Origin: Escherichia phage vB_EcoM_ECO1230-10
DNA: 41,666 nucleotides
Strand: one strand, 5' to 3'
Sequence record: NC_027995.1
Of this stretch, positions 16,391 through 30,811 are shown one piece after another; positions within the stretch are counted from its first letter, which is position 1, and every line of letters begins with the position of its first letter. A program made the translations under genes and the position numbers. The notes below the pieces were generated by a model, which was not told the DNA's origin, searched no databases, and saw only the letters and a list, made by a program, of their open reading frames with translations.

Positions 16391-16729
16391 TTATGTCACC
16401 ACTATGCCATCAATCGTTATTTGTTTGCCGTCTGGCAGGTATTCGCCGGTAATGGAAAATTCCACGCGCCCTGGCACCGCTGCGGTGGCTGTCACCTGCT
16501 GCACGCTGATGCGTGGTTCCCAGGCTTCCAGCGCTTCCGCCGTCGCTGCGTACAGGTCCAGCAGCGTGCTGCGGTTCATTGGTGCATCAACCAGGTACGG
16601 CAACCGGCTGCCGTAGTCGCGGCGCATCACTCTCGTGCCAATTGGCGTCGTGAGTATGTCACGTATGGATTGGCGCAGATGGTCCAGGCCATCCAGCGGC
16701 GCGCCTGTTGCCGCGTTTGTTCCTTTCAT
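16391..16729 (-). CDS. baseplate protein W (gp25-like)
   Basis: LRQSIRDILTTPIGTRVMRRDYGS matches GPW/gp25 signature. Confidence 0.85.
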   Translation of the reverse strand: MKGTNAATGAPLDGLDHLRQSIRDILTTPIGTRVMRRDYGSRLPYLVDAPMNRSTLLDLYAATAEALEAWEPRISVQQVTATAAVPGRVEFSITGEYLPDGKQITIDGIVVT

Positions 16730-16762
16730 GCGGGCAATGATGCCCGCATGGCCAGTGTTTTA

Positions 16763-16779
16763 TCTTCTTGGGGTTTGTC
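16763..16779 (-). promoter_or_regulatory. late-junction motif copy 2 (17 of 18), between V and W
   Basis: starts 4 nt after V stop; 34 nt from W ATG; followed by hairpin catgcgggc/gcccgcatg that contains the W start codon. Confidence 0.4.
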
Positions 16780-16782
16780 AGG

Positions 16783-18556: not shown

Positions 18557-18875
18557 CTTGGCGCGTCATCCTCACCACGGCGGTGCCTGTTCCATCCTGT
18601 TCAGGGGATGCCAGCACGTCGAACGTTTCACCGGCCACAATGATTGTGTCACCACGCAGAATGCCAGCCAGGTCAGATTCCTTTGCCGTGATGCGCGGGC
18701 TGCTGGTGTCCGCTTCATACTCGCCAATTTGCGCGTTGAAGTACGGGTCATCAAAAATGGCGTTAATTGTTCTGGTCCAACCTTTTTGCGAATGAATAAC
18801 GGCGGGAAATGCAAACCCGCCGTTGGTGTCAAGGTCAAAAAAGTCGTCCAGGTTTTCCCATGACGGCGCGGGCAT
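18543..18875 (-). CDS. putative head completion / head-tail connector protein
   Basis: 110 aa; position downstream of capsid genes; overlapping starts and stops with neighbours. Confidence 0.35.
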   Translation of the reverse strand: MPAPSWENLDDFFDLDTNGGFAFPAVIHSQKGWTRTINAIFDDPYFNAQIGEYEADTSSPRITAKESDLAGILRGDTIIVAGETFDVLASPEQDGTGTAVVRMTRQDAAF

Positions 18876-19231
18876 TACTGTGATTCCCGCTTATTGCCAA
18901 CCAGCACAACGCTGCGGATTGCCGAACCGGTATCTGCTGAAACATCTTTCACGCGAACGAATTTTTTGAAACGGTCAGCGTTAAACAGGATGGTGTCAGC
19001 CTTCGCTGCGGTGCCGATCTGCGCAAACGTGGTGTTTGGAACCGCAGTCCAGTTGTCTGTGCCATTGTCGCTGTGTTCAAGGCTTACAGTGGTGGTTCCA
19101 GCAGTGCCAATGCCATTCATGTGCAGAAGGCACAGGCCGTGATAATCACCAACGTTGACGGCTGAACCGTTGCCGTTAGCTGTAATGGTCGCTGGTGCTG
19201 CCAGCACAGTTACAGAAGTGCCGTGTTGCAT
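18875..19231 (-). CDS. hypothetical head-associated protein (118 aa)
   Basis: Thr/Ala/Gly-rich; position after capsid gene; TAATG coupling. Confidence 0.35.
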   Translation of the reverse strand: MQHGTSVTVLAAPATITANGNGSAVNVGDYHGLCLLHMNGIGTAGTTTVSLEHSDNGTDNWTAVPNTTFAQIGTAAKADTILFNADRFKKFVRVKDVSADTGSAIRSVVLVGNKRESQ

Positions 19232-19533
19232 TATTCGTCACCCTCTTTGGTTTCGCCTGCGGCTTCGATGGATTCAATCAACTGCGCTTTGGTCATCTTT
19301 TCAGCGCCTTCGATTTCCATATGTTCTGCAATAGCGATAAGCTGATCTTTGTTCATTTTCGTGATTTCAACATCTTCATCACGCGCCGGTTGTTCGTCGT
19401 GCATCACGGCTTTGCCACGTGACAACAGGTTTTTGGCCTCAAGCTCTGAAACCTCAACCAGTGAACCCGCTTTCATGACTTCACCGCTGATAGCAATGGC
19501 GGAAGTCAATTTCAGTACGTAAGTACCAGACAT
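19231..19533 (-). CDS. hypothetical protein with C-terminal Rho-N/HeH-like helix motif
   Basis: strong AGGAGA RBS; C-terminal MNKDQLIAIAEHMEIEGAEKMTKAQLIESIEA. Confidence 0.45.
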   Translation of the reverse strand: MSGTYVLKLTSAIAISGEVMKAGSLVEVSELEAKNLLSRGKAVMHDEQPARDEDVEITKMNKDQLIAIAEHMEIEGAEKMTKAQLIESIEAAGETKEGDE

Positions 19534-19561
19534 AAAACTGTCTCCTGTCGGAAAAGACTAT

Positions 19562-19577
19562 GGCCGCCGAAGCGGCC
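19562..19577 (-). terminator. hairpin (possible partial terminator) after capsid gene
   Basis: ggccgc-cgaa-gcggcc directly after the capsid stop; weak T-tract. Confidence 0.35.
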
Positions 19578-19584
19578 ATGATCG

Positions 19585-21633
19585 TTATTCTACTTTGCGG
19601 CCAAGCGCGAAGGATTCAACGCGGCGCACAGCAAAATCCACGTCCTGGAATACCACGATGCGCAGGCCACCGGATTTGCTCAGGCTGTACGGGTCAACCG
19701 TCATGTCCAGGCCGCCCCACATACCAACAACCAGGTCAGCGAAGTTGCCAAAGAACACGTCACCATCCTGCACCTGGTTGGTTACTTCGGCGCGGTAGCC
19801 GTTCAGGGTGTTGCCCGGTTCCCAAATCACACCAGCATCAGCAACGGAAGAACCGCTGGCAAACTTAGGCGTGGTTTTCGCTGCGCCACGGCCACGCGCG
19901 TTCAGCACATACGCCATGTTGTTAACGTCAGCGTTGTCAGCCGCAATTTCGGTTTCCATCTGCACCAGTTCCGCATAAGTCGGATTGTCTGCTGCGAAGT
20001 CTACCGCGTTAATGCCGGTGTAGTTCGCCAGGCCCAGCGGCTGGTTGCTGGTGCCGGTGCCGTAGTAACCAGCGTAATCAATCGCCTGCGCGATAGCTGC
20101 CACCAGATCACCACGCACGATGGCTTCCGCATCCGGGGTGGATTGCATCAGCAGGCGGCGGGTAATGTCGGTGTAAGCCGCAACGGTTTTAGGTGACAAG
20201 CCAAGCTGGCCGATGGTCGGCGTGGTTTCGGTTGCGTCATCACCTTCACCAATCCAGTAGGCAGTAGCGCCGCCAGTCTGTTTCGGAATTTCAACGTTGC
20301 CAACCAGGCCGCCCATAGTGCGCGCCAGGCGCATGATGGTGGTACGCGGGCGCAGCAGGTCGATGAACGAACTGGCCATAAAGTCAGTACCCACCAGGTT
20401 GGAACCGGTTTGAGCGCCTGTCGGGGTGTTCGGTGCGCCGCCAGCGTTGAATGCACGCAGAACATCGTCAGGGATCAGAATGCCTTTTGCACTGCGGCCA
20501 TACTGCTGTTGCGCTGCGTGGCTGCATTCGATTTCAAACGCTGCGGCACGTTGTGCGGCTGCATCGTTCGGGTTAGCCAGCGCGCGAACCACGTTGAAAA
20601 TGCTATAGCGGCGGATGTCTTTGTCAGACATACCAATAACGCTTGACGGCATTTCTGACAGCGGTTTGCCGCCTGAACGGGTGTCATCAGCCGGTTGTGC
20701 CGGGTCTTTCGTCTTGTTAAGGTGGTCCAGCAAGGAACGCTGGAAATCTTCGGCGGTGGTGCCTTCGCCAATGGCTTTCAAAGCCAGGTCACGTGCGTTG
20801 TACTTCTCACCCATTTCGGTGATTGAGCGAACGCGCGCCTTTTCGGCTTCACGGCCACGCTGTTCAGCGCTGCGCACATCATCGCCAGCACGTTCCAGCA
20901 TTTCCAGAACCTGCGTGATTTTGCCTTTCTCGTCTACCATCGCGCGCACCAGATTACCGGCAGCGTCGCGCAGAGTTTTTTCTAACATTCGTGAATCCTC
21001 AAATGATTTTTTTGGTGCTGGAACCTCTACGGTGCCCGCAGTATCGGATTTGCTGCCGCGTTGTTCTTCTTGGGGTTTGTCAAACGCACGCCCAATGCCA
21101 ACGCTGGTGTCAGCGGGAACGCTCACAATTGAAATTTCGAACGGTTCCCATTCAGTGATGCGGTAGACATCCTGCCACTCGTCACGCGTTTCCTGTAGCT
21201 TGGCCGCTAACACGCGGTAGCCAACGGAAACATGCTTGCGAATGCCGTCAACGATGTCCTGGAAAATCTCGTCAGCGCGCGCACTTCTGCCAAAGCGCAC
21301 CACAGCCCGCCCCCGGCGGTCAGCGTCAATGCTGACGGATTCAACAACGCCCACCTGGTCAGTCCAATCGTGGTCAACCAGCAGCGCCCCACCGTCACGC
21401 AGACGGTCTAGGCGCACGCTTTCCGGCGAATGGTCCAGAATTTCGATACCGTACCAGCGTTCAACCTCGATTTCAGAGGAAAAAGCCAGTTCTACGGTGC
21501 GTTTTTCGGTGTCAAACTTGCGCACTTCCATAGTGCGCACTAGCCCACCTTTGTTGAAGTCAGGCAGCGTTTTGCTGTCTGATTTGCGGGTAAATTCGGC
21601 CCCAATGATGCTATTCAGCAGGTTTTTCTGCAT
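19585..21633 (-). CDS. prohead protease - scaffold(delta) - HK97-fold major capsid protein fusion ORF
   Basis: N-terminal about 190 aa protease-like (LLVDHDW), coiled-coil linker, C-terminal HK97-like capsid body; single 682-codon frame. Confidence 0.8.
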   Translation of the reverse strand: MQKNLLNSIIGAEFTRKSDSKTLPDFNKGGLVRTMEVRKFDTEKRTVELAFSSEIEVERWYGIEILDHSPESVRLDRLRDGGALLVDHDWTDQVGVVESVSIDADRRGRAVVRFGRSARADEIFQDIVDGIRKHVSVGYRVLAAKLQETRDEWQDVYRITEWEPFEISIVSVPADTSVGIGRAFDKPQEEQRGSKSDTAGTVEVPAPKKSFEDSRMLEKTLRDAAGNLVRAMVDEKGKITQVLEMLERAGDDVRSAEQRGREAEKARVRSITEMGEKYNARDLALKAIGEGTTAEDFQRSLLDHLNKTKDPAQPADDTRSGGKPLSEMPSSVIGMSDKDIRRYSIFNVVRALANPNDAAAQRAAAFEIECSHAAQQQYGRSAKGILIPDDVLRAFNAGGAPNTPTGAQTGSNLVGTDFMASSFIDLLRPRTTIMRLARTMGGLVGNVEIPKQTGGATAYWIGEGDDATETTPTIGQLGLSPKTVAAYTDITRRLLMQSTPDAEAIVRGDLVAAIAQAIDYAGYYGTGTSNQPLGLANYTGINAVDFAADNPTYAELVQMETEIAADNADVNNMAYVLNARGRGAAKTTPKFASGSSVADAGVIWEPGNTLNGYRAEVTNQVQDGDVFFGNFADLVVGMWGGLDMTVDPYSLSKSGGLRIVVFQDVDFAVRRVESFALGRKVE
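21064..21081 (-). promoter_or_regulatory. late-junction motif copy 3, inside protease-capsid ORF linker
   Basis: exact 18-mer encoding DKPQEE; 76 nt upstream of internal GAGGA-N7-ATG at 20988. Confidence 0.45.
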
Positions 21634-23167
21634 TTTGCTGCCCCATTAACAGTTGTTTGTCCATGCCCATGCTTTGCATGACCAGTTTTTCCGCCATTTC
21701 GCGGCTGATACCGTGCTGCGTGTACGCCTCAATCATGCGCGCCACGTCGCTGGCGGTTTCCTTCCAAACGGTGTCAGGGTCGCTGCCACCTTCACGGATG
21801 ATGCGGCCAGGTGATTGCAGCATGTTGTTTTTGGACCGTTCAGCAGCTGCCACGTCAGATGACGGGTCAATCCAGGCCCAACGGCGTGGCTGCCATTCAA
21901 TGTTGCTGTAGCGGTCGATGCGTTCCGGTTTCAGGCTTCGTCCTTTAACGGTGATGCGGCCAGCAAGCAGGGCACGCGGCAACCATGCTTCAAAAACTGG
22001 TTGATGCAGGTTTTCAATCAACCATTCCTGCAATTCTTTCCAGTTTTCTCGGCTGTCTAGCGTTCCCTGGCGGATAGAGCTGAAATTGACGCCTTCCAGG
22101 TCGCTGGCAAGGTCATTATATGGAACACCCATACCCGATGCCATGCCGCGCAGCATTTGTTTGGTGAACACGGCAAATTCGCCGTTTGGGTATTGTGGCG
22201 ACCAGTCTTTGACGCGTGCGCCCTGTGGCAGAATCTGGAATTCACCCGGTTCACTGTCAATGATCAGTTCATCATCATCTTCAAACTCAGGACCAGCGGA
22301 ATTTTCATCCCATTCGATGAATCCCATTTTGTTGGCACCGGCGCGCGCGTTGACCAGCGCGGCTTCTTCCATGCCACCCAGGTGGCGCATACGAAACAGG
22401 CTGGTGGCCATCCACGGAAGGCCGCGTTTCTGCCCCACCATGTCATCCAGGAAGCCGTGAAGGATTTCATCAGCGGGAATTCGCACGAAATCACGCCCGG
22501 ACCAACGGTAGTTATCATTGGATTCATCAACCGTGCTGAAATAGTACGCAACAGGCCGCCCGTAGCGATTAAACTCGATGCCCTGGCGGATGAAATTTCC
22601 GTTATTCAGACGATCTTCAACCATGTCAACAGGGCAGCGTTGCGGGTCCAGCAGTTGCAGCGCGAAGCCCCACGGCCCTGCATCGGCACCGAACACCAGG
22701 CGCACGAAGAATTCACCATCTTTAGCCGTGCTGTTGACGCAGGCAGCCTGGATGGCGCGCCAGGATAACTTCCCTGTCACGTCGCAGTTTGACTTGTGCC
22801 CCCACTTATCGAAGGCCGTTTCAATGGCTTCGTTGGCCAGGGTGTCCAGTTTCCCGGTGTTGTCAGTGCTTTTGGCCTGCAACAGAACGCCTTTTGGACC
22901 AACAATATTGTTGCGGCACAGGCGCAGGAACTTTTTGGCATAATCATTGTTGGCGGCCTGCTCGCGGGAACGCGCCACCAGGATGCGTTGATTTTTGTTT
23001 ATTACCTCGTCAGCCGTCAGCGGCTGTGTACCCCACGCGGTTCCAAAACGGTCAATACTGGCACCGGTAAACATACGGGACGCCAGGCGGTTAAGCGATA
23101 AACGCCGCGTGCGCGGCTGTTGTGCCTGTTCTGCAGGCTTATTTCTGGTAAATGGCCACAGTTTCAT
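21611..23167 (-). CDS. portal protein (lambda gpB family)
   Basis: 518 aa; position between terminase and protease; lambda-B-like central region. Confidence 0.85.
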   Translation of the reverse strand: MKLWPFTRNKPAEQAQQPRTRRLSLNRLASRMFTGASIDRFGTAWGTQPLTADEVINKNQRILVARSREQAANNDYAKKFLRLCRNNIVGPKGVLLQAKSTDNTGKLDTLANEAIETAFDKWGHKSNCDVTGKLSWRAIQAACVNSTAKDGEFFVRLVFGADAGPWGFALQLLDPQRCPVDMVEDRLNNGNFIRQGIEFNRYGRPVAYYFSTVDESNDNYRWSGRDFVRIPADEILHGFLDDMVGQKRGLPWMATSLFRMRHLGGMEEAALVNARAGANKMGFIEWDENSAGPEFEDDDELIIDSEPGEFQILPQGARVKDWSPQYPNGEFAVFTKQMLRGMASGMGVPYNDLASDLEGVNFSSIRQGTLDSRENWKELQEWLIENLHQPVFEAWLPRALLAGRITVKGRSLKPERIDRYSNIEWQPRRWAWIDPSSDVAAAERSKNNMLQSPGRIIREGGSDPDTVWKETASDVARMIEAYTQHGISREMAEKLVMQSMGMDKQLLMGQQNAEKPAE

Positions 23168-23712: not shown

Positions 23713-25761
23713 TCACCAGCGGCTAACCCATCCACCGCCACGGCGTTTTGCTGCCCTGGCGGAACGTTTAATGGTCTTAGTCTCTGTGACTTGCTGTTTT
23801 TCTTCTTCTTGGGGTTTGTCATTTGCCGGTTGCGGTGTTTCTACCGGTTTCATGACTGGTTTGACGCTCGGCAGCCGCTTGCGGCGTTCCGGTGGCGCGT
23901 TGTCGTTTGCTACCCCAAACTTTTCAGCCAGGCGGCGGAATGACGGCTGCATGATTTTCAGCGCGGCCAGCGCATAGTTGCGGCAGTCCAGTGCTTCGTT
24001 GCGCGCCCGGTCGGGTTTCTTCCATTCTCGGATTGGCTGGCCCTTCACGTAACGCATGGTCAGCTTTTCAGCGGTGATTTGCTTGAACCATTCTTCATCG
24101 CGGTCAGCAGGGAAGTGGCAATAACCCGGCCCCGGTGCCGTCTTGTTTAAACGCCTTGCGGTTATCAGCTTGGCTTCATCGGTTCCAACCAGGAACAAAT
24201 CCACTTTGCGGGTATCCTTCCCGGATTGCTTGCGCTGCGGCTTCTCCACGATAGGGCGGCCCCATCCACCAACGCCTTTGATGGCAAACAGGCGGCGGCC
24301 TGTGCGGCCTCTTGCGTAGTCGTATGCGGCCTGCGTGTAACCGCTGGTGCCCCCGGTATCGAGGCAGGCGGCCATGATCGGCATGATGGCCCCGGTTTCG
24401 TGCTGGTAGGTTTCCGCCAGCAGGTCATCCAGCGCATCCCAGGGGTCTGGCGTCAGCGGGTCGCCCCACAGGACGTGGTAACCCAATGACCAGGATTCTT
24501 CACCCACGCCCCAGGCCACAACCTCACATTCCAGGCGGTCAACCTGCATGTCTATGCCTGCGGTGATATACAGACCACCAGCAGGCACCTGCGCGGCGTA
24601 TTCCTCGCGGCGCGCCATCAGTGAATCCGGGTCAACCTTGTCGCCTTCTTCTTCCCATGTGCGCGCCAGGCTGACGTTGGTGAAGGTTTGCAGGTCGTCC
24701 GTTTTCAGCTTGTCCAGGTAGTCACGCACGATGGCCGGTACTTTACGGAATGTGCTGTATAGTTCGTTCAGGTGGTAGCTGGCGTGACCTTCAAACGGCC
24801 TGGATGCCTTCCATCCTGCGCCCTTTTCTTCGGCCTGGCGGATAGCCGCTATCCGTTCGCCGTCATTCCACTGCGCGCCGCATGATGGGCAATACAGGTG
24901 CGCTGTTTCCGGCTTCTGTTCGTCGATGGCCGCCAGCGTTTCCGCGTCAGTTTCGCGCTGGCCATCCCATTTGACGTTTTCCCATTCAAGCGTAACGTGA
25001 TCGTCACAGTGCGGGCAGCAAACATAGAAGTGTCGCTGGTCGCCCATTTCATACGCTTTTTCGATGTACGATTCCCCCTTAAGGGTAGGGGTGCTGATTT
25101 CCAGCAAAAACCGTTGGTCACCGAAGGTGGCAGAACGCTGCCACAGCAGGCCAACCGGGTGACCTTCGCTGGTTCGTTCATATCCGTCTACCTCGTCACA
25201 TACGATCAGCGGCGCTGAACGACCGCGCATGGTCTTTGGCGAACCGGACCATGCGAACATCAGGAACCCGCCAGGGTATGATTTCATTTTCTGGTTGTTC
25301 ACCCCGTCGCGGCCACGCGGTTTGGCAATGGCGTTGTTTACCGGCGCGCATTCTTCCGCCAGCGGGTTGAATTTTGTTTCCAGCCAGGTGCGCAAGTCAT
25401 CCTGGCTTGGCTGCATCATCATCTGGCTGCGCGGTTCAGCGGCTACGCTGTACGCCTGCACGCACAGTGCCAGCATGGTTTTGCCCACCTGTGCGCCCCA
25501 CATCAGCGTTACGCGGTAGCAATCCGGGTCAACCAGCATGTCCATTGGTTCGCGCTGGTATGGCGCGTTATCCAGGCGCAGCGGCCCTGGCACGGCGTTG
25601 CCAGACGGAATGCGGATGTTTGCCTGCGCCCACTCTGACGGCTTCATGTCTGGCGGCGGCAACAATTGTTGTTGTGCGCGCCTGATGGCCTGGTCGATGC
25701 CTTCAATGTTGGCAAACGGGTTATTCTTCGCTGTCACCGTCGCCCCCTTCGTCATAGCCAT
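23713..25761 (-). CDS. terminase large subunit (lambda gpA family)
   Basis: 682 aa; N-terminal PSEWAQANIRIP...MWGAQVGKT region aligns with lambda A; nuclease and ATPase motifs present. Confidence 0.9.
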   Translation of the reverse strand: MAMTKGATVTAKNNPFANIEGIDQAIRRAQQQLLPPPDMKPSEWAQANIRIPSGNAVPGPLRLDNAPYQREPMDMLVDPDCYRVTLMWGAQVGKTMLALCVQAYSVAAEPRSQMMMQPSQDDLRTWLETKFNPLAEECAPVNNAIAKPRGRDGVNNQKMKSYPGGFLMFAWSGSPKTMRGRSAPLIVCDEVDGYERTSEGHPVGLLWQRSATFGDQRFLLEISTPTLKGESYIEKAYEMGDQRHFYVCCPHCDDHVTLEWENVKWDGQRETDAETLAAIDEQKPETAHLYCPSCGAQWNDGERIAAIRQAEEKGAGWKASRPFEGHASYHLNELYSTFRKVPAIVRDYLDKLKTDDLQTFTNVSLARTWEEEGDKVDPDSLMARREEYAAQVPAGGLYITAGIDMQVDRLECEVVAWGVGEESWSLGYHVLWGDPLTPDPWDALDDLLAETYQHETGAIMPIMAACLDTGGTSGYTQAAYDYARGRTGRRLFAIKGVGGWGRPIVEKPQRKQSGKDTRKVDLFLVGTDEAKLITARRLNKTAPGPGYCHFPADRDEEWFKQITAEKLTMRYVKGQPIREWKKPDRARNEALDCRNYALAALKIMQPSFRRLAEKFGVANDNAPPERRKRLPSVKPVMKPVETPQPANDKPQEEEKQQVTETKTIKRSARAAKRRGGGWVSRW
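23803..23820 (-). promoter_or_regulatory. late-junction motif copy 4, in terminase C-terminal codons
   Basis: exact 18-mer encoding DKPQEE; 97 nt upstream of the next gene's GTG start. Confidence 0.45.
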
Positions 25762-27995: not shown

Positions 27996-28430
27996 TTATT
28001 GCCCCGTAGTCATTAGTAGTCGGTGCTGATGGTTGTCATTTGCAGGTGATGTGTCTTTATGGGGTTTGTCAGTGCAATGGCGCTTAACGGTGCGTTCTGA
28101 AACGTCCAACAGTTCCGCGATGGTTTTCGCGTCCACTCCTTCGCTGTGCATCCGCTTAATGCTGCGGTGAATGAAATGGCGGTAAATGTATTCACAATTA
28201 GCCGGGTGAAGCATTTCACCACCGAAGTGCTGCACCATCTTGCTGGCATCGTGCCACCCCAGGATTTTCACCAGTGGGTCATTGGGTCGGATCCGCTTTG
28301 GTACATACAGGATGACTTTGTGGTATTGCTGCGATGGCACCCACAGTTTTGGTAGTTGTCCGATAAGAAAAAGCGCACGTTCACGGCCAATAACGTCAGC
28401 TATTTCCTGCACAGTGCGCGGTAATTCCAT
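27996..28430 (-). CDS. Mor/C-family transcriptional activator (candidate late activator)
   Basis: FGGEML...(about 20 aa)...VDAKTIAELLDVSERTVKRH matches Mor/C layout; located immediately upstream of lysis genes as Mu C is. Confidence 0.55.
   Translation of the reverse strand: MELPRTVQEIADVIGRERALFLIGQLPKLWVPSQQYHKVILYVPKRIRPNDPLVKILGWHDASKMVQHFGGEMLHPANCEYIYRHFIHRSIKRMHSEGVDAKTIAELLDVSERTVKRHCTDKPHKDTSPANDNHQHRLLMTTGQ
28054..28070 (-). promoter_or_regulatory. late-junction motif copy 5 (variant GACAAACCCCATAAAGA), upstream of holin
   Basis: 13 of 17 match, same strand and frame (TDKPHKD) inside activator gene 3' end; 64 nt from holin ATG. Confidence 0.35.
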
Positions 28431-28500
28431 GTAACCCCCAATAATTATAAATAAAAGTCAATATGGGGATTGTAGCACACAGAATATACGAAAGTAACAA

Positions 28501-28768
28501 GGGACTAACTTGGGACTATCTCAGCAAAAGATAGTCCCACTGTTATGCTATTGATTAACTTAAAGAAAACGCCATTTTCTGGCTGATTTGGGACAAGTGG
28601 GACCAAATTTCCCTATATATACTATTACTCCCCATATATTTATAAATAATGTTTTATAAAAAGATAGTCCCTTATAGTCCCAAATGGTGTTTTCGTTATT
28701 AATATCAATAACTTAACGTGGGACCAGCTCAAAAAAAGATAGTCCCATTTGGGACCATAGATAGTCCC
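28501..28768. repeat. iteron-like cluster of 9-bp motif GATAGTCCC with AT-rich tract
   Basis: GATAGTCCC at 28530, 28663, 28738, 28760; TATAGTCCC 28673; inverted GGGACTATC 28512 and GGGACTAAC 28501; GGGAC(C/A)A x4; AT-rich tract 28611-28662. Confidence 0.7.
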
Positions 28769-28829
28769 AAATCGCATTTGTGTGACAATTACTTACCAGA
28801 AAAAGAGGTTAATATTGCTAAATCAACCA

Positions 28830-28854
28830 AAGAAAAAACCGCCCGAAGGCGGTT
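28830..28854 (-). terminator. intrinsic terminator after AP2-like gene
   Basis: minus sense aaccgcc-ttcg-ggcggtt followed by TTTTTTC. Confidence 0.6.
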
Positions 28855-30736: not shown

Positions 30737-30790
30737 AATACTATATTTACTTAGGTAAATGTTCTAATCGTTTGTACCTATCAATAAAAA
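30737..30790 (-). promoter_or_regulatory. conserved intergenic element copy B (downstream of primase)
   Basis: about 80% identical over about 55 bp to 36676-36731; core CTATA...GGTAAAT...AATCG.TTGTACCTAT.AATAAA. Confidence 0.4.
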
Positions 30791-30811
30791 CAAAACCCGC
30801 CGAAGCGGGTT
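30783..30811 (-). terminator. intrinsic terminator after primase gene
   Basis: minus sense acccgc-ttcg-gcgggt followed by TTTTGTTTTTA. Confidence 0.65.

Follow-up and report, generated by a model that had tools for sequence, protein, structure and literature searches.

In bacteriophage lambda, the C/Nu3 locus yields an abundant 3'-coterminal assembly protein and a rare full-length form, the latter bringing the protease inside the procapsid. The protease in lambda is of a peptidase family other than S78, and to our knowledge no internal promoter has been described for C/Nu3. In HSV-1, the nested gene UL26.5 has its own promoter, which lies within the protease coding region. The nested protease-scaffold scheme, as found in lambda C/Nu3 and Mu I/Z, has been summarised together with the nested 3'-coterminal scaffold genes of HSV-1 (UL26/UL26.5) and of the archaeal virus HFTV1 (gp17/gp17.5) (bioRxiv 10.64898/2026.09.13.751334).

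Protease, scaffold-like region and capsid protein may also be joined in a single gene. Such triple fusions are found in actinophage clusters AN, AM, AU, EE and EL, in Rhodococcus RRH1, Pseudomonas MD8, Xanthomonas Murka and the R. capsulatus RcC phages, and are represented by NCBIfam NF045541 and by PHROG 617 and 4523. The MD8 family is of the ClpP type. The related fused genes have been termed a single propeptide or a single gene (PMC10892653; PMC8508860; PMC7302621). The fused architecture has thus been published before, though solely under the description "single propeptide". In the usual view each subunit carries its own protease, which gives an unexplained 1:1 ratio of protease to capsid protein. 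Published descriptions of the triple fusions make no mention of an internal start or promoter, no nested CDS is annotated in the fused-phage records examined, VP882 included, and literature searches found no report of internal initiation in protease-capsid fusions. The fusion in Rhodococcus RRH1 has one candidate start with a Shine-Dalgarno (SD) sequence in its linker.

The window considered here is the whole stretch of 41,666 nucleotides of Escherichia phage vB_EcoM_ECO1230-10 (NC_027995.1), a Jilinvirus myophage with around 96% identity to the E. coli phage vB_EcoM-ep3. The literature searched contained no transcript, ribosome-profiling or protein data on this phage or its relatives, and papers on the ep3 relatives gave no virion or precursor protein data. 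The locus of interest is a single uninterrupted reading frame of 682 codons, laid out as follows.

19585..21633, minus strand: full-length ORF, 682 aa, 74.2 kDa, comprising protease, linker, scaffold-like region and HK97-fold capsid protein
21085..21519, minus strand: protease domain, residues ~39-183, of the Peptidase_S78 / HK97 gp4 type (PF04586, TIGR01543, AlphaFold)
20989..21084, minus strand: disordered linker, residues 184-215, with the predicted promoter, 5' UTR and ribosome-binding site (pLDDT < 50; hypervariable as protein)
20434..20988, minus strand: scaffold/delta-like region, residues 216-~400 (AlphaFold secondary structure; limits of the TIGR01554 and R4C alignments)
19588..20433, minus strand: predicted mature HK97-fold capsid protein, residues ~401-682, ~30 kDa (Pfam, TIGR01554, AlphaFold and PDB matches)

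The original prediction, made from the sequence of the window, had read protease-like, scaffold-like and HK97-fold capsid parts in this frame with no stop codon between them, and this reading agrees with Pfam, NCBIfam, the AlphaFold model and the PDB matches. Pfam places Peptidase_S78 at residues 84-176 and Phage_capsid at 410-678, and PHROG 617 ('major head protein') matches the protein from end to end. The frame opens with an ATG (21633-21631) that lies inside the portal gene (21611..23167), 23 nt from the 3' end of the latter, and a weak SD, GGGG (dG -4.7), precedes it. Residues 1-35 are conserved among homologues (alignment A1), so translation begins at or near Met1. Thousands of homologues likewise have both domains, protease and capsid, in a single unbroken ORF: 16,359 cluster representatives match the protein, some of them not fused, nearly all of the best 150 have the fused length, and full-length fused matches extend down to about 40% identity. 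True homologues include the proteins of Murka, PPpW-3, VP882, phiHAP-1 and R4C. NF045541 matches only residues 40-319, with 170.5 bits against a cutoff of 525, and the protein is therefore of the NF045541 type in architecture but outside that specific family.

The protease domain is modelled by AlphaFold with a pLDDT of around 88-94 across residues 39-183. PF04586 matches residues 84-176 above its cutoff (38.6 against 21 bits) and TIGR01543 matches below its own (36.3 against 59), which places the domain at the level of the family (MEROPS S78) and not of the equivalog. His88 and Ser136, the putative catalytic residues, show no variation across 35 sequences reaching down to 40% identity. At the other end of the protein, the capsid part matches PF05065 (E 1.6e-46) and PDB 8gta_A (E 3.7e-54), and Foldseek matches its model to the HK97, GTA, D3 and R4C capsids. 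TIGR01554, the HK97 capsid model, scores 113.8 bits against a cutoff of 27.5 and aligns only from residue 402, which corresponds to residue 105 of mature HK97. PDB 8GTA is the capsid protein of roseophage vB_DshS-R4C, a fused homologue; the deposited virion protein (8gta_A) has 268 aa, consists of the C-terminal part only and aligns to residues 411-678. The annotated genomes of HeidiAbel, Arya and KA2-1 list no second protease gene. This, the invariance of His88 and Ser136 and the C-terminal extent of the R4C virion protein all suggest that the full-length, protease-carrying protein is needed.

Between these two parts, AlphaFold predicts a small beta sheet (residues 217-247) and helices at 251-306 and 337-393, a scaffold-like region whose removal at maturation is predicted. 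The locus resembles HK97 genes 4 and 5, since protease (PF04586/TIGR01543) and capsid protein (PF05065/TIGR01554) belong to the same families and since the HK97 gene 5 product likewise has an N-terminal scaffold-like extension that is removed at maturation. In HK97, however, there are two genes with a stop between them, whereas here there is none and what were intergenic signals would be read as linker. The scaffold-like region is also larger, with about 185 residues and a small beta domain in place of the 102 helical residues of HK97.

The linker harbors a candidate second start for translation (...TTTGAGGATTCACGAATGTTAGAAAAAACT... on the minus strand).

20996..21000, minus strand: Shine-Dalgarno GAGGA, in the codons Glu-Asp, 7 nt ahead of the internal ATG (dG -6.0)
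19585..20988, minus strand: nested in-frame ORF from Met216 to the stop, 467 aa, 49.9 kDa, comprising scaffold-like domain and capsid protein

GAGGA (21000-20996), a 7-nt spacer (20995-20989) and ATG (20988-20986; Met216, MLEKTLRDAAG...) are present as originally described. In the AlphaFold model, the first element to fold after the linker begins with Met216. The SD is of moderate strength, at -6.0 as against -4.7 at the full-length start, and lies in an A-rich, unstructured context; RNA structure that would mask or expose it gave no signal (z-scores 0.3 and 0.8). An SD-like stretch (duplex dG <= -5) stands upstream of 4 of the 15 internal in-frame ATGs of the ORF, and Met216 ranks sixth among the in-frame start-like codons. 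Judged in the window alone, the SD-ATG at 20988 is not beyond chance, and its significance derives only from its position and its conservation.

That conservation was examined in homologues collected by scanning viral contigs with an alignment as query; a scan of genome contigs with the single protein had returned 4 loci. An ATG with an SD (dG <= -5) no more than 46 codons past the motif that ends the protease is found in 63 of 84 distinct fused ORFs of 40-98% identity, compared with 97 of 897 control windows (10.8%), the 84 homologues sharing a phylogeny so that the counts are not independent events. The remaining 21 miss the threshold. The strongest SD-start of the whole ORF falls in this boundary zone in 28 of the 84, where 4.6 would be expected. 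The Fisher p for the enrichment at the boundary is 8e-22. Many of the boundary starts are near consensus, such as AAGGAGG-N6-8-ATG. In 120 homologues the linker is variable, with indels, save for three small conserved islands. The stretch S-E-[D/E/G]-x-[R/K]-(x)-M is kept in nearly all homologues at 67-98% identity and is followed directly by a conserved EKILRDxxGNLVRA block; in DNA its E-[D/E/G] is GAG-GNx, which is to say an SD, and GAGG is invariant in an alignment of 9 genomes. Two cases without the ATG were read at the DNA level, both homologues from E. coli prophages with GAGG still in front: L009 has TTG (GAGGTCAAAAAATTG) and L012 has GTG (GAGGTCATTAAAGTG). A 460-aa protein beginning at the position of Met216 (P0157) was considered as a stand-alone capsid gene and rejected; the frame stays open through the 73 nt that separate it from the start of its contig, which makes it a truncated fusion of no evidential value here.

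These observations bear on the simplest alternative, namely that only a single polyprotein is made. Every subunit would then be a self-processing 74-kDa precursor, the SD-ATG in the linker would go unused, Met216 would be kept as the start of the scaffold fold, and an internal promoter would just boost the downstream head and tail genes. Such an account matches the descriptions of related genes in the literature, and it can draw on the frequency of SD-like stretches before in-frame ATGs in this ORF as well as on the conservative nature, at the protein level, of exchanges among Met, Val and Leu. We nonetheless regard it as unlikely. The Val and Leu replacements are precisely GTG and TTG, and an SD-like GAGG or AGGAGG is kept at the proper spacing in a linker that has neither conservation as protein nor predicted structure. 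The putative promoter lies 94 nt ahead of the ATG, while the next gene is 1.5 kb and a terminator-like hairpin away. By a rough estimate, a T=7 shell of such precursors would also enclose some 415 extra 24-kDa proteases and 20-kDa scaffolds, making for a crowded procapsid.

The promoter in question is predicted from an 18-nt motif, one copy of which had been placed 76 nt upstream of the internal ATG, a distance that is confirmed when measured from the end of the motif.

21065..21082, minus strand: 18-nt predicted late-promoter upstream element TGACAAACCCCAAGAAGA, at about -49 to -32 of the predicted start, in frame as D-K-P-Q-E-E
21040..21045, minus strand: -10-like hexamer GATACT, in the codons Asp-Thr, 19 nt after the motif
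23804..23821, minus strand: upstream motif copy in the C-terminal tail of the large terminase, likewise D-K-P-Q-E-E, with GAGACT as -10

The motif occurs five times in the window at 0-2 mismatches, against an expectation of 0.03. All five copies are on the minus strand, and each stands upstream of a gene start on this late strand; two are non-coding, and one comes directly after a terminator hairpin. The copy in the terminase tail is the likely source of the transcript for gp3, portal and full-length protease-capsid protein. The form of the motif differs between genomes, being TGACAAACCCCAAGAAGA in the window and in HeidiAbel, TGACACCCCGCACGAAGA in Arya and TGACA[A/G]GCCGCACGAAGA in KA2-1, and within each genome all copies vary in step, coding or non-coding. 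The syntenic capsid-linker site has its own variant in Arya, in KA2-1 and in more than 12 distant loci, and distant phages have a variant of their own at these three positions (terminase tail, capsid linker and after baseplate V). The linker residues follow, with DKPQEE in this phage, DTPHEE in Arya and DKPHEE in KA2-1. A meaning as a peptide, for instance as a cleavage site common to terminase, activator and capsid protein, was rejected because two of the copies do not code for protein and because the copies, coding or not, co-vary from genome to genome.

An alignment of 47 copies from 17 genomes was needed to find the true spacing of 19 nt from the 3' end of the motif: nAnnnT follows at 19 nt in 41 of the 47 copies and at 20 nt in 5 more. 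The [D/N/Q]-T that the hexamer encodes in the linker is a conserved island in that otherwise variable segment. In 11 of 14 baseplate-W copies the ATG of the gene comes 6-7 nt after the hexamer, as for a leaderless mRNA, the W ORF running off the locus end in the other 3. For one of the window's copies, the ATG of baseplate W, with its A at 16729, falls where transcription is predicted to begin, and it is on this leaderless copy that the start predicted near 21033 for the internal promoter was calibrated. A sigma-70 promoter was considered and rejected, as no -10 stands 17 nt from the motif's TGACA; a sigma-70-type -35 is absent, and a generic promoter scan made no call at the motif. Taken with its spacing and its copies, the 18-nt motif is to be read as the upstream half of a conserved, bipartite and phage-specific late promoter that is predicted to serve the internal start.

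Late promoters of this kind have precedents. In Mu (Mor/C) and P2/186 (Ogr/B) a small activator acts on late operons that share an upstream element overlapping the -35 position of a weak core promoter. As in those phages, one upstream element here recurs at several late operons at a fixed spacing from a -10 hexamer. Unlike theirs, the present motif is not a dyad, and one of the promoters lies inside a structural ORF. The candidate reader of the motif is the following protein.

27996..28430, minus strand: 144-aa 'late transcriptional activator' with a C-terminal helix-turn-helix (PHROG 836, E 7e-30)

This protein has weak matches to the sigma-70 region 4 and GerE helix-turn-helix families and, unlike Mor and C of Mu, shows no Pfam match to Mor (PF08765) at E <= 0.01. 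Its recognition helix is identical in four genomes with differing motifs, and only the preceding helix differs; that it reads the motif is put forward as a candidate assignment. The phage genome also codes for ParB-like and DksA-like proteins.

Could the motif be something other than a promoter? In that case the two products would still be made, the short one from the long late mRNA as with lambda Nu3, through an internal start of translation only, and the motif would be another phage-specific site in DNA or RNA, bound for instance by a regulator or by a protein of packaging or partition, or marking a place of RNA processing. The lack of a recognisable -35, the silence of the generic sigma-70 scan and the ParB-like and DksA-like proteins are all compatible with such a role. 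We consider it quite improbable, as the spacing of 19-20 nt to nAnnnT in 46 of 47 copies is what a promoter predicts and is hard to explain otherwise, as is the baseplate-W ATG 6-7 nt past the hexamer in 11 loci. The copy right after a terminator hairpin, and the placement of all copies ahead of late-strand gene starts, point the same way.

Behind the capsid gene lies an element that would close the transcription unit.

19560..19579, minus strand: GC-rich hairpin with a T-rich tail, terminator-like, 5 nt past the capsid stop codon

A comparable hairpin, mostly with a T-run, comes right after the capsid stop in most of the homologous loci examined, and we predict that it ends a short capsid transcription unit.

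A further possibility is that the SD-ATG and promoter are relics, left from a protease/capsid intergenic region that lost its stop codon and no longer under selection. The layout is indeed that of HK97-type genes 4 and 5 with the intervening stop deleted. The fusion is nevertheless ancient and very widespread, with matches down to about 40% identity, and the signals have persisted, co-varying with their counterparts elsewhere in each genome, in a linker whose remainder has diverged beyond alignment. Persistence and change in step, within a diverging linker, are a signature of ongoing selection, and a mere relic is hardly credible.

The explanation we favor, and hold to be probable as a whole, is that the locus specifies two co-terminal in-frame proteins by means of an internal promoter and start, and that these proteins co-assemble and are then cleaved. 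Conservation of the start and its SD, together with the bipartite promoter, suggests that the linker works as promoter, 5' UTR, ribosome-binding site and start codon while being read in frame. From the sequence anatomy, start-site conservation and promoter architecture documented here we infer the use of this promoter and start, the ratio of products, their co-assembly and the cleavage sites. Very probably the scaffold-capsid protein is made in bulk beside a rarer, protease-carrying version. The rare product would be the full-length protein of 74 kDa, made from the weak SD-ATG in the overlap with the portal gene, and the abundant one would be a protein of 467 aa and 50 kDa, scaffold-like domain plus capsid protein, begun at Met216 behind GAGGA. 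The 32-residue linker would double as a complete expression signal, its motif (21082-21065) probably being read by the phage's own late activator, with the -10-like GATACT at 21045-21040, a start at about 21033 and a 5' UTR of around 44 nt. Transcripts from the internal promoter would have the capacity to code for the short product only, and would mostly end at the hairpin after the capsid stop. The procapsid shell would be built from the short product, and a few full-length copies would join it via their capsid or scaffold part, so that the protease ends up inside. The protease would then cut off itself and the scaffold region of about 185 residues to leave the mature capsid protein of about 30 kDa.

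The original claim of two products from one frame thus finds strong support, short of proof, in the boundary SD-start (63/84 against 10.8% of controls), the GTG and TTG variants and the bipartite promoter. Its comparison with lambda C/Nu3 is apt for the mechanism, since in both there is an in-frame SD-ATG inside a protease ORF, the use of which is predicted here. It does not carry over to the protease family or to the nested product, for lambda nests only the scaffold and encodes its capsid protein, gpE, in another gene, whereas here the nested ORF takes in the whole HK97-fold capsid domain before its stop at 19585 and thus comprises scaffold and capsid protein rather than scaffold only. For the internal promoter, the closest analogue is that of HSV-1 UL26.5, which nonetheless belongs to a eukaryotic virus, is of another promoter type, accompanies a separate capsid protein and has no sequence relationship to the present locus.

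Protease-capsid fusion genes are common, with thousands of homologues of the present one and unrelated versions in many actinophages. If the two-product account is correct, the problems of a 1:1 ratio of protease to capsid protein and of a crowded procapsid would no longer arise, thanks to a conserved nested start under its own promoter, which would extend the logic of lambda C/Nu3 and UL26/UL26.5 to the capsid protein itself. Such genes would need two CDS in their annotation instead of one, and structural or nanocage work would call for a different design of expression. A by-product is the predicted late-promoter architecture of the Jilinvirus-like myophages, including a leaderless baseplate gene. 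More broadly, the balance tips slightly towards a reading in which this large and ancient family of tailed phages, and possibly such fusions generally, absorbed an intergenic control region as a functional disordered linker, with all of its parts retained (activator-dependent promoter, -10, 5' UTR, ribosome-binding site and start codon). A single stretch of 96 nt would then serve as protein code and as transcriptional and translational control of a nested capsid gene, a few capsid subunits would bring in the maturation protease as an N-terminal extension, in a manner of dosing like that of Gag and Gag-Pol, and the promoter word would co-evolve with its genomic copies, dragging the linker residues along. 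The locus would in this way offer a case of dual-use DNA, in which promoter, ribosome-binding site and protein linker occupy the same bases and each constrains the evolution of the others.

The capsid ORF (window 19585..21633, minus strand) is a single frame of 682 codons without a stop that, as the original prediction held, joins a prohead protease to an HK97-fold capsid protein, with Pfam matches to Peptidase_S78 (residues 84-176) and Phage_capsid (residues 410-678). The NCBIfam HK97 major capsid model matches residues 402-678 over model positions 105-383, the mature part of HK97 gp5, and the NCBIfam model 'prohead protease/major capsid protein fusion protein' gives a sub-threshold match. 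An AlphaFold model built with 35 homologues predicts the following regions.

Residues 39-183: protease domain, predicted with confidence
Residues 184-215: disordered linker (pLDDT < 50)
Residues 217-247: small beta sheet, starting from Met216/Leu217
Residues 251-306: helices
Residues 337-393: helices
Residues 394-421: disordered stretch
Residues 422-682: HK97 fold

Among solved structures the nearest is that of the roseophage vB_DshS-R4C capsid protein (8gta_A), whose 268 deposited residues align to residues 411-678. R4C, too, encodes this protein in a fused gene, a homologue spanning query residues 42-678, so that in at least one relative the virion protein is the C-terminal part only. Within the protease, His88 and Ser136 are invariant among the aligned homologues, and no second protease gene is annotated in the genomes of the relatives; the 74.2-kDa full-length protein is therefore the sole source of the protease.

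The internal SD and ATG proposed for the linker are present on the minus strand (TTTGAGGATTCACGAATG), with the ATG at 20988 encoding Met216. From this window alone the site does not exceed chance: SD-like sequence precedes 4 of the 15 internal in-frame ATGs of the ORF, and Met216 is sixth among its start-like codons by SD pairing energy. Comparison gives a different picture. Across 120 homologues (67-98% identity) the linker is hypervariable, in length as well as in sequence, yet nearly all of them carry S-E-[D/E/G]-x-[R/K]-(x)-M directly before a conserved EKILRDxxGNLVRA block. The DNA for E-[D/E/G] is GAG-GNx, with GAGG invariant in a nine-genome alignment. The few homologues without the Met have Val or Leu instead, and in the two that were read as DNA the codons are GTG (GAGGTCATTAAAGTG) and TTG (GAGGTCAAAAAATTG).

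A further 80 diverse viral-metagenome loci (40-70% identity) were added, and in-frame ATG, GTG and TTG codons were all scored for anti-SD pairing. At thresholds of our own choosing, an ATG with dG <= -5 lies no more than 46 codons past the protease-end motif P[AF]D..VG.GR in 63 of 84 distinct fused ORFs, which are related by descent and are not 84 independent events, compared with 97 of 897 equal-sized control windows from the same ORFs. The top SD-start of the whole ORF falls inside the linker in 28 ORFs (4.6 expected), and in many distant members the site is close to consensus, for example AAGGAGG-N6-8-ATG with a product that begins MSE. The SD words differ in nucleotide sequence among relatives, a sign that they are maintained and not simply inherited.

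The window is nearly the entire genome (41.7 kb) of a Jilinvirus, one of the small-genome myophages that infect enterobacteria (subfamily Iiscvirinae). Its capsid region is 96% identical to that of Escherichia phage vB_EcoM-ep3, 94-96% to those of HeidiAbel (Bas97), ECOO78, PT1 and Alux-21, and 82-84% to those of Enterobacter phage Arya and Klebsiella phage KA2-1. The minus-strand late genes run from the late activator through holins, endolysin, spanin, small and large terminase, gp3 and portal to the capsid ORF, and then to head completion, baseplate, fibres, sheath and tube. A non-coding region of ~370 nt (28431-28800) precedes the late-activator gene and contains at least 8 copies of AGATAGTCCCA / TGGGACTATCT in both orientations, among them a perfect 11-nt inverted pair (28511-28521 / 28529-28539), together with two AT-rich CCCC(A)ATA(A)TTATAAATAA repeats. 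It resembles an array of operators or iterons, which would control the late activator or serve as an origin.

The 18-mer TGACAAACCCCAAGAAGA does lie 76 nt 5' of the internal ATG, as had been noted, and is one of five same-strand copies in the window (0-2 mismatches; 0.03 expected).

28071-28054, minus strand: inside the late-activator C-terminal tail, read as TDKPHKD, 2 mismatches; next start holin
23821-23804, minus strand: inside the large-terminase C-terminal tail, read as NDKPQEEEK; next start gp3 / portal
21082-21065, minus strand: inside the capsid-ORF linker; next start internal capsid ATG
16780-16763, minus strand: intergenic; next start baseplate W
10489-10472, minus strand: intergenic, directly past a terminator hairpin; next start tail sheath

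The three coding copies all translate as D-K-P-Q/H-E/K-E/D. A role for the motif at the peptide level is excluded, as coding and non-coding copies shift in concert between genomes. The Arya word, at four syntenic sites, is TGACACCCCGCACGAAGA, that of KA2-1 is TGACA[A/G]GCCGCACGAAGA, and the linker residues track the motif (DKPQEE, DTPHEE, DKPHEE). Distant phages have words of their own (TGAAAAANCCCAAGAGGA, GGAAANCCCACAAGAGGA, GAAACCGCCAGAGGA, AAAACCCCGCCGTGGA, AATGCCATCCCNCACAATGACA) at the terminase tail, in the capsid linker and after baseplate V. The copies inside the terminase and activator tails imply that these tails have been shaped by promoter sequence. The activator copy stands at the head of the lysis genes and may serve as a promoter of lower strength or different timing.

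When 47 motif copies from 17 genomes are aligned on the motif 3' end, an nAnnnT hexamer (GATACT, GAGACT, CAAACT, GACAAT and others) starts exactly 19 nt past the motif in 41, at 20 nt in five, and is absent in one; the chance rate is ~1 in 16 positions. This spacing places the motif at roughly -49 to -32, and the -35 region that it overlaps holds no sigma-70 -35 consensus. Of 14 baseplate-W copies, 11 have the W ATG 6-7 nt past the hexamer, and the remaining three are in loci that end within the W ORF; this independent check supports the -10 assignment. In the window (16727-16780, minus strand) the ATG at 16729 is 7 nt past CATCAT (16742-16737), and the 6-7 nt spacing also holds in the homologous loci L094 (9536), L095 (9524), L020 (7356), L041 (6683), L008 (7606), L034 (4345), L024 (7274) and L032 (7272). 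Since this ATG sits at the expected transcription start, baseplate W appears to have a leaderless mRNA. The -10-like hexamer also accounts for the third conserved island of the capsid linker, [D/N/Q]-T (GAT/AAT/CAA-ACT).

The motif is best read as one half of a late promoter, the hexamer being its -10, with the layout of the activator-dependent type. The obvious candidate to read it is a 144-aa protein matching PHROG 836, 'late transcriptional activator', whose helix-turn-helix resembles sigma region 4 and GerE; a four-genome alignment gave no clear co-variation between recognition helix and motif. In two viral metagenome contigs (L024 3491 and L032 3491) an in-frame GTG or ATG lies 6 nt past the capsid-linker hexamer, and their nested product might also come from a leaderless transcript besides the downstream SD-ATG. 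A Paracoccus aestuariivivens prophage (L008, 2930 and 3542) has two copies of its own word, TGAAATNNCGCCAGAGGAAC, one ~60 nt before the full-length ATG and the other ~85 nt before the internal ATG, so that each start has its own copy; the first is the one copy of the 47 that lacks nAnnnT at the standard spacing.

Around the nested reading frame, the following elements are predicted.

21045-21040, minus strand: -10 element GATACT of the capsid-linker copy
near 21033, minus strand: predicted transcription start of the capsid-linker promoter
~21033 to ATG 20988, minus strand: A-rich, unstructured 5'UTR of ~44 nt
21000-20996, minus strand: SD before ATG 20988
19579-19560, minus strand: terminator-like hairpin 3' of the capsid stop codon

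An equivalent post-capsid hairpin is found in most homologous loci examined. Near-identical A-rich and GC-hairpin elements (AAAACCCGCCGAAGCGGG type, GAAG tetraloop-like) recur at several gene ends (885-910, 1504-1529, 28827-28852, 30784-30809, 19544-19575), probably a shared intrinsic-terminator design of which the post-capsid hairpin is one member. Beyond it, a 100-aa gene (19231-19533, minus strand) is named 'endonuclease VII' in relatives via PHROG 3281, a doubtful name because Pfam matches only a Rho_N (HeH-type) motif and DUF7210. The neighbouring 118-aa gene (18875-19231, minus strand; PHROG 5707) matches F5/8 type C weakly and could encode a head decoration or cement protein.

To judge from its sequence, the linker works as a full set of promoter, leader and RBS while also being translated in frame. 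Transcripts that start at the internal promoter would encode only the 467-aa, 49.9-kDa scaffold-capsid protein. The full-length protein begins at an ATG overlapping the portal stop region, behind a weaker SD (dG -4.7), and would come from longer transcripts, probably from the terminase-tail promoter. By analogy with lambda C/Nu3, HSV-1 UL26/UL26.5 and HFTV1 gp17/17.5, the short form would build the shell, a minority of full-length subunits would co-assemble and carry the protease inside, and proteolysis would then strip residues 1 to ~400. We base this account, including product ratio, promoter use, activator identity and cleavage sites, on conservation between genomes.

The fused architecture is already known: it is noted in papers on Arthrobacter, Microbacterium and Rhodobacter phages (PMC7302621 among them), and NCBIfam and PHROGs hold models for it. 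For Pseudomonas MD8 and Xanthomonas Murka, the three functions are described as lying in a 'single gene' or 'single 684-amino acid propeptide' (PMC10892653; PMC8508860), and the Murka protein is a true homologue of the window protein (48% identity). Given the maintained linker start and its promoter-like surroundings, we regard a single polyprotein as the only product as quite improbable. Two products from one frame is the reading that we prefer. The published descriptions and family models of these fusions contain no internal start or promoter, and no nested CDS is annotated in the phage records of the fused homologues compared, including VP882.

Nested protease/scaffold genes are well known as a class. 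The arrangement proposed here would differ on two points: the capsid protein is part of what the nested gene encodes, and that gene would be driven by a promoter of its own within the linker. An unrelated actinophage protease-capsid fusion without a Pfam match, RRH1 gp07 (Rhodococcus phage RRH1, NC_016651; L097 4439-6424), has an in-frame ATG at codon 274 behind GAAGGA-N9, the best SD-ATG of its ORF, within a Pro/Ser-rich stretch (...PQPSPEGTPA-M-NRDQLIAQLL...) at the start of a helical-looking segment. One example of this kind is a hint that other, independent families of fusions may have nested starts too.
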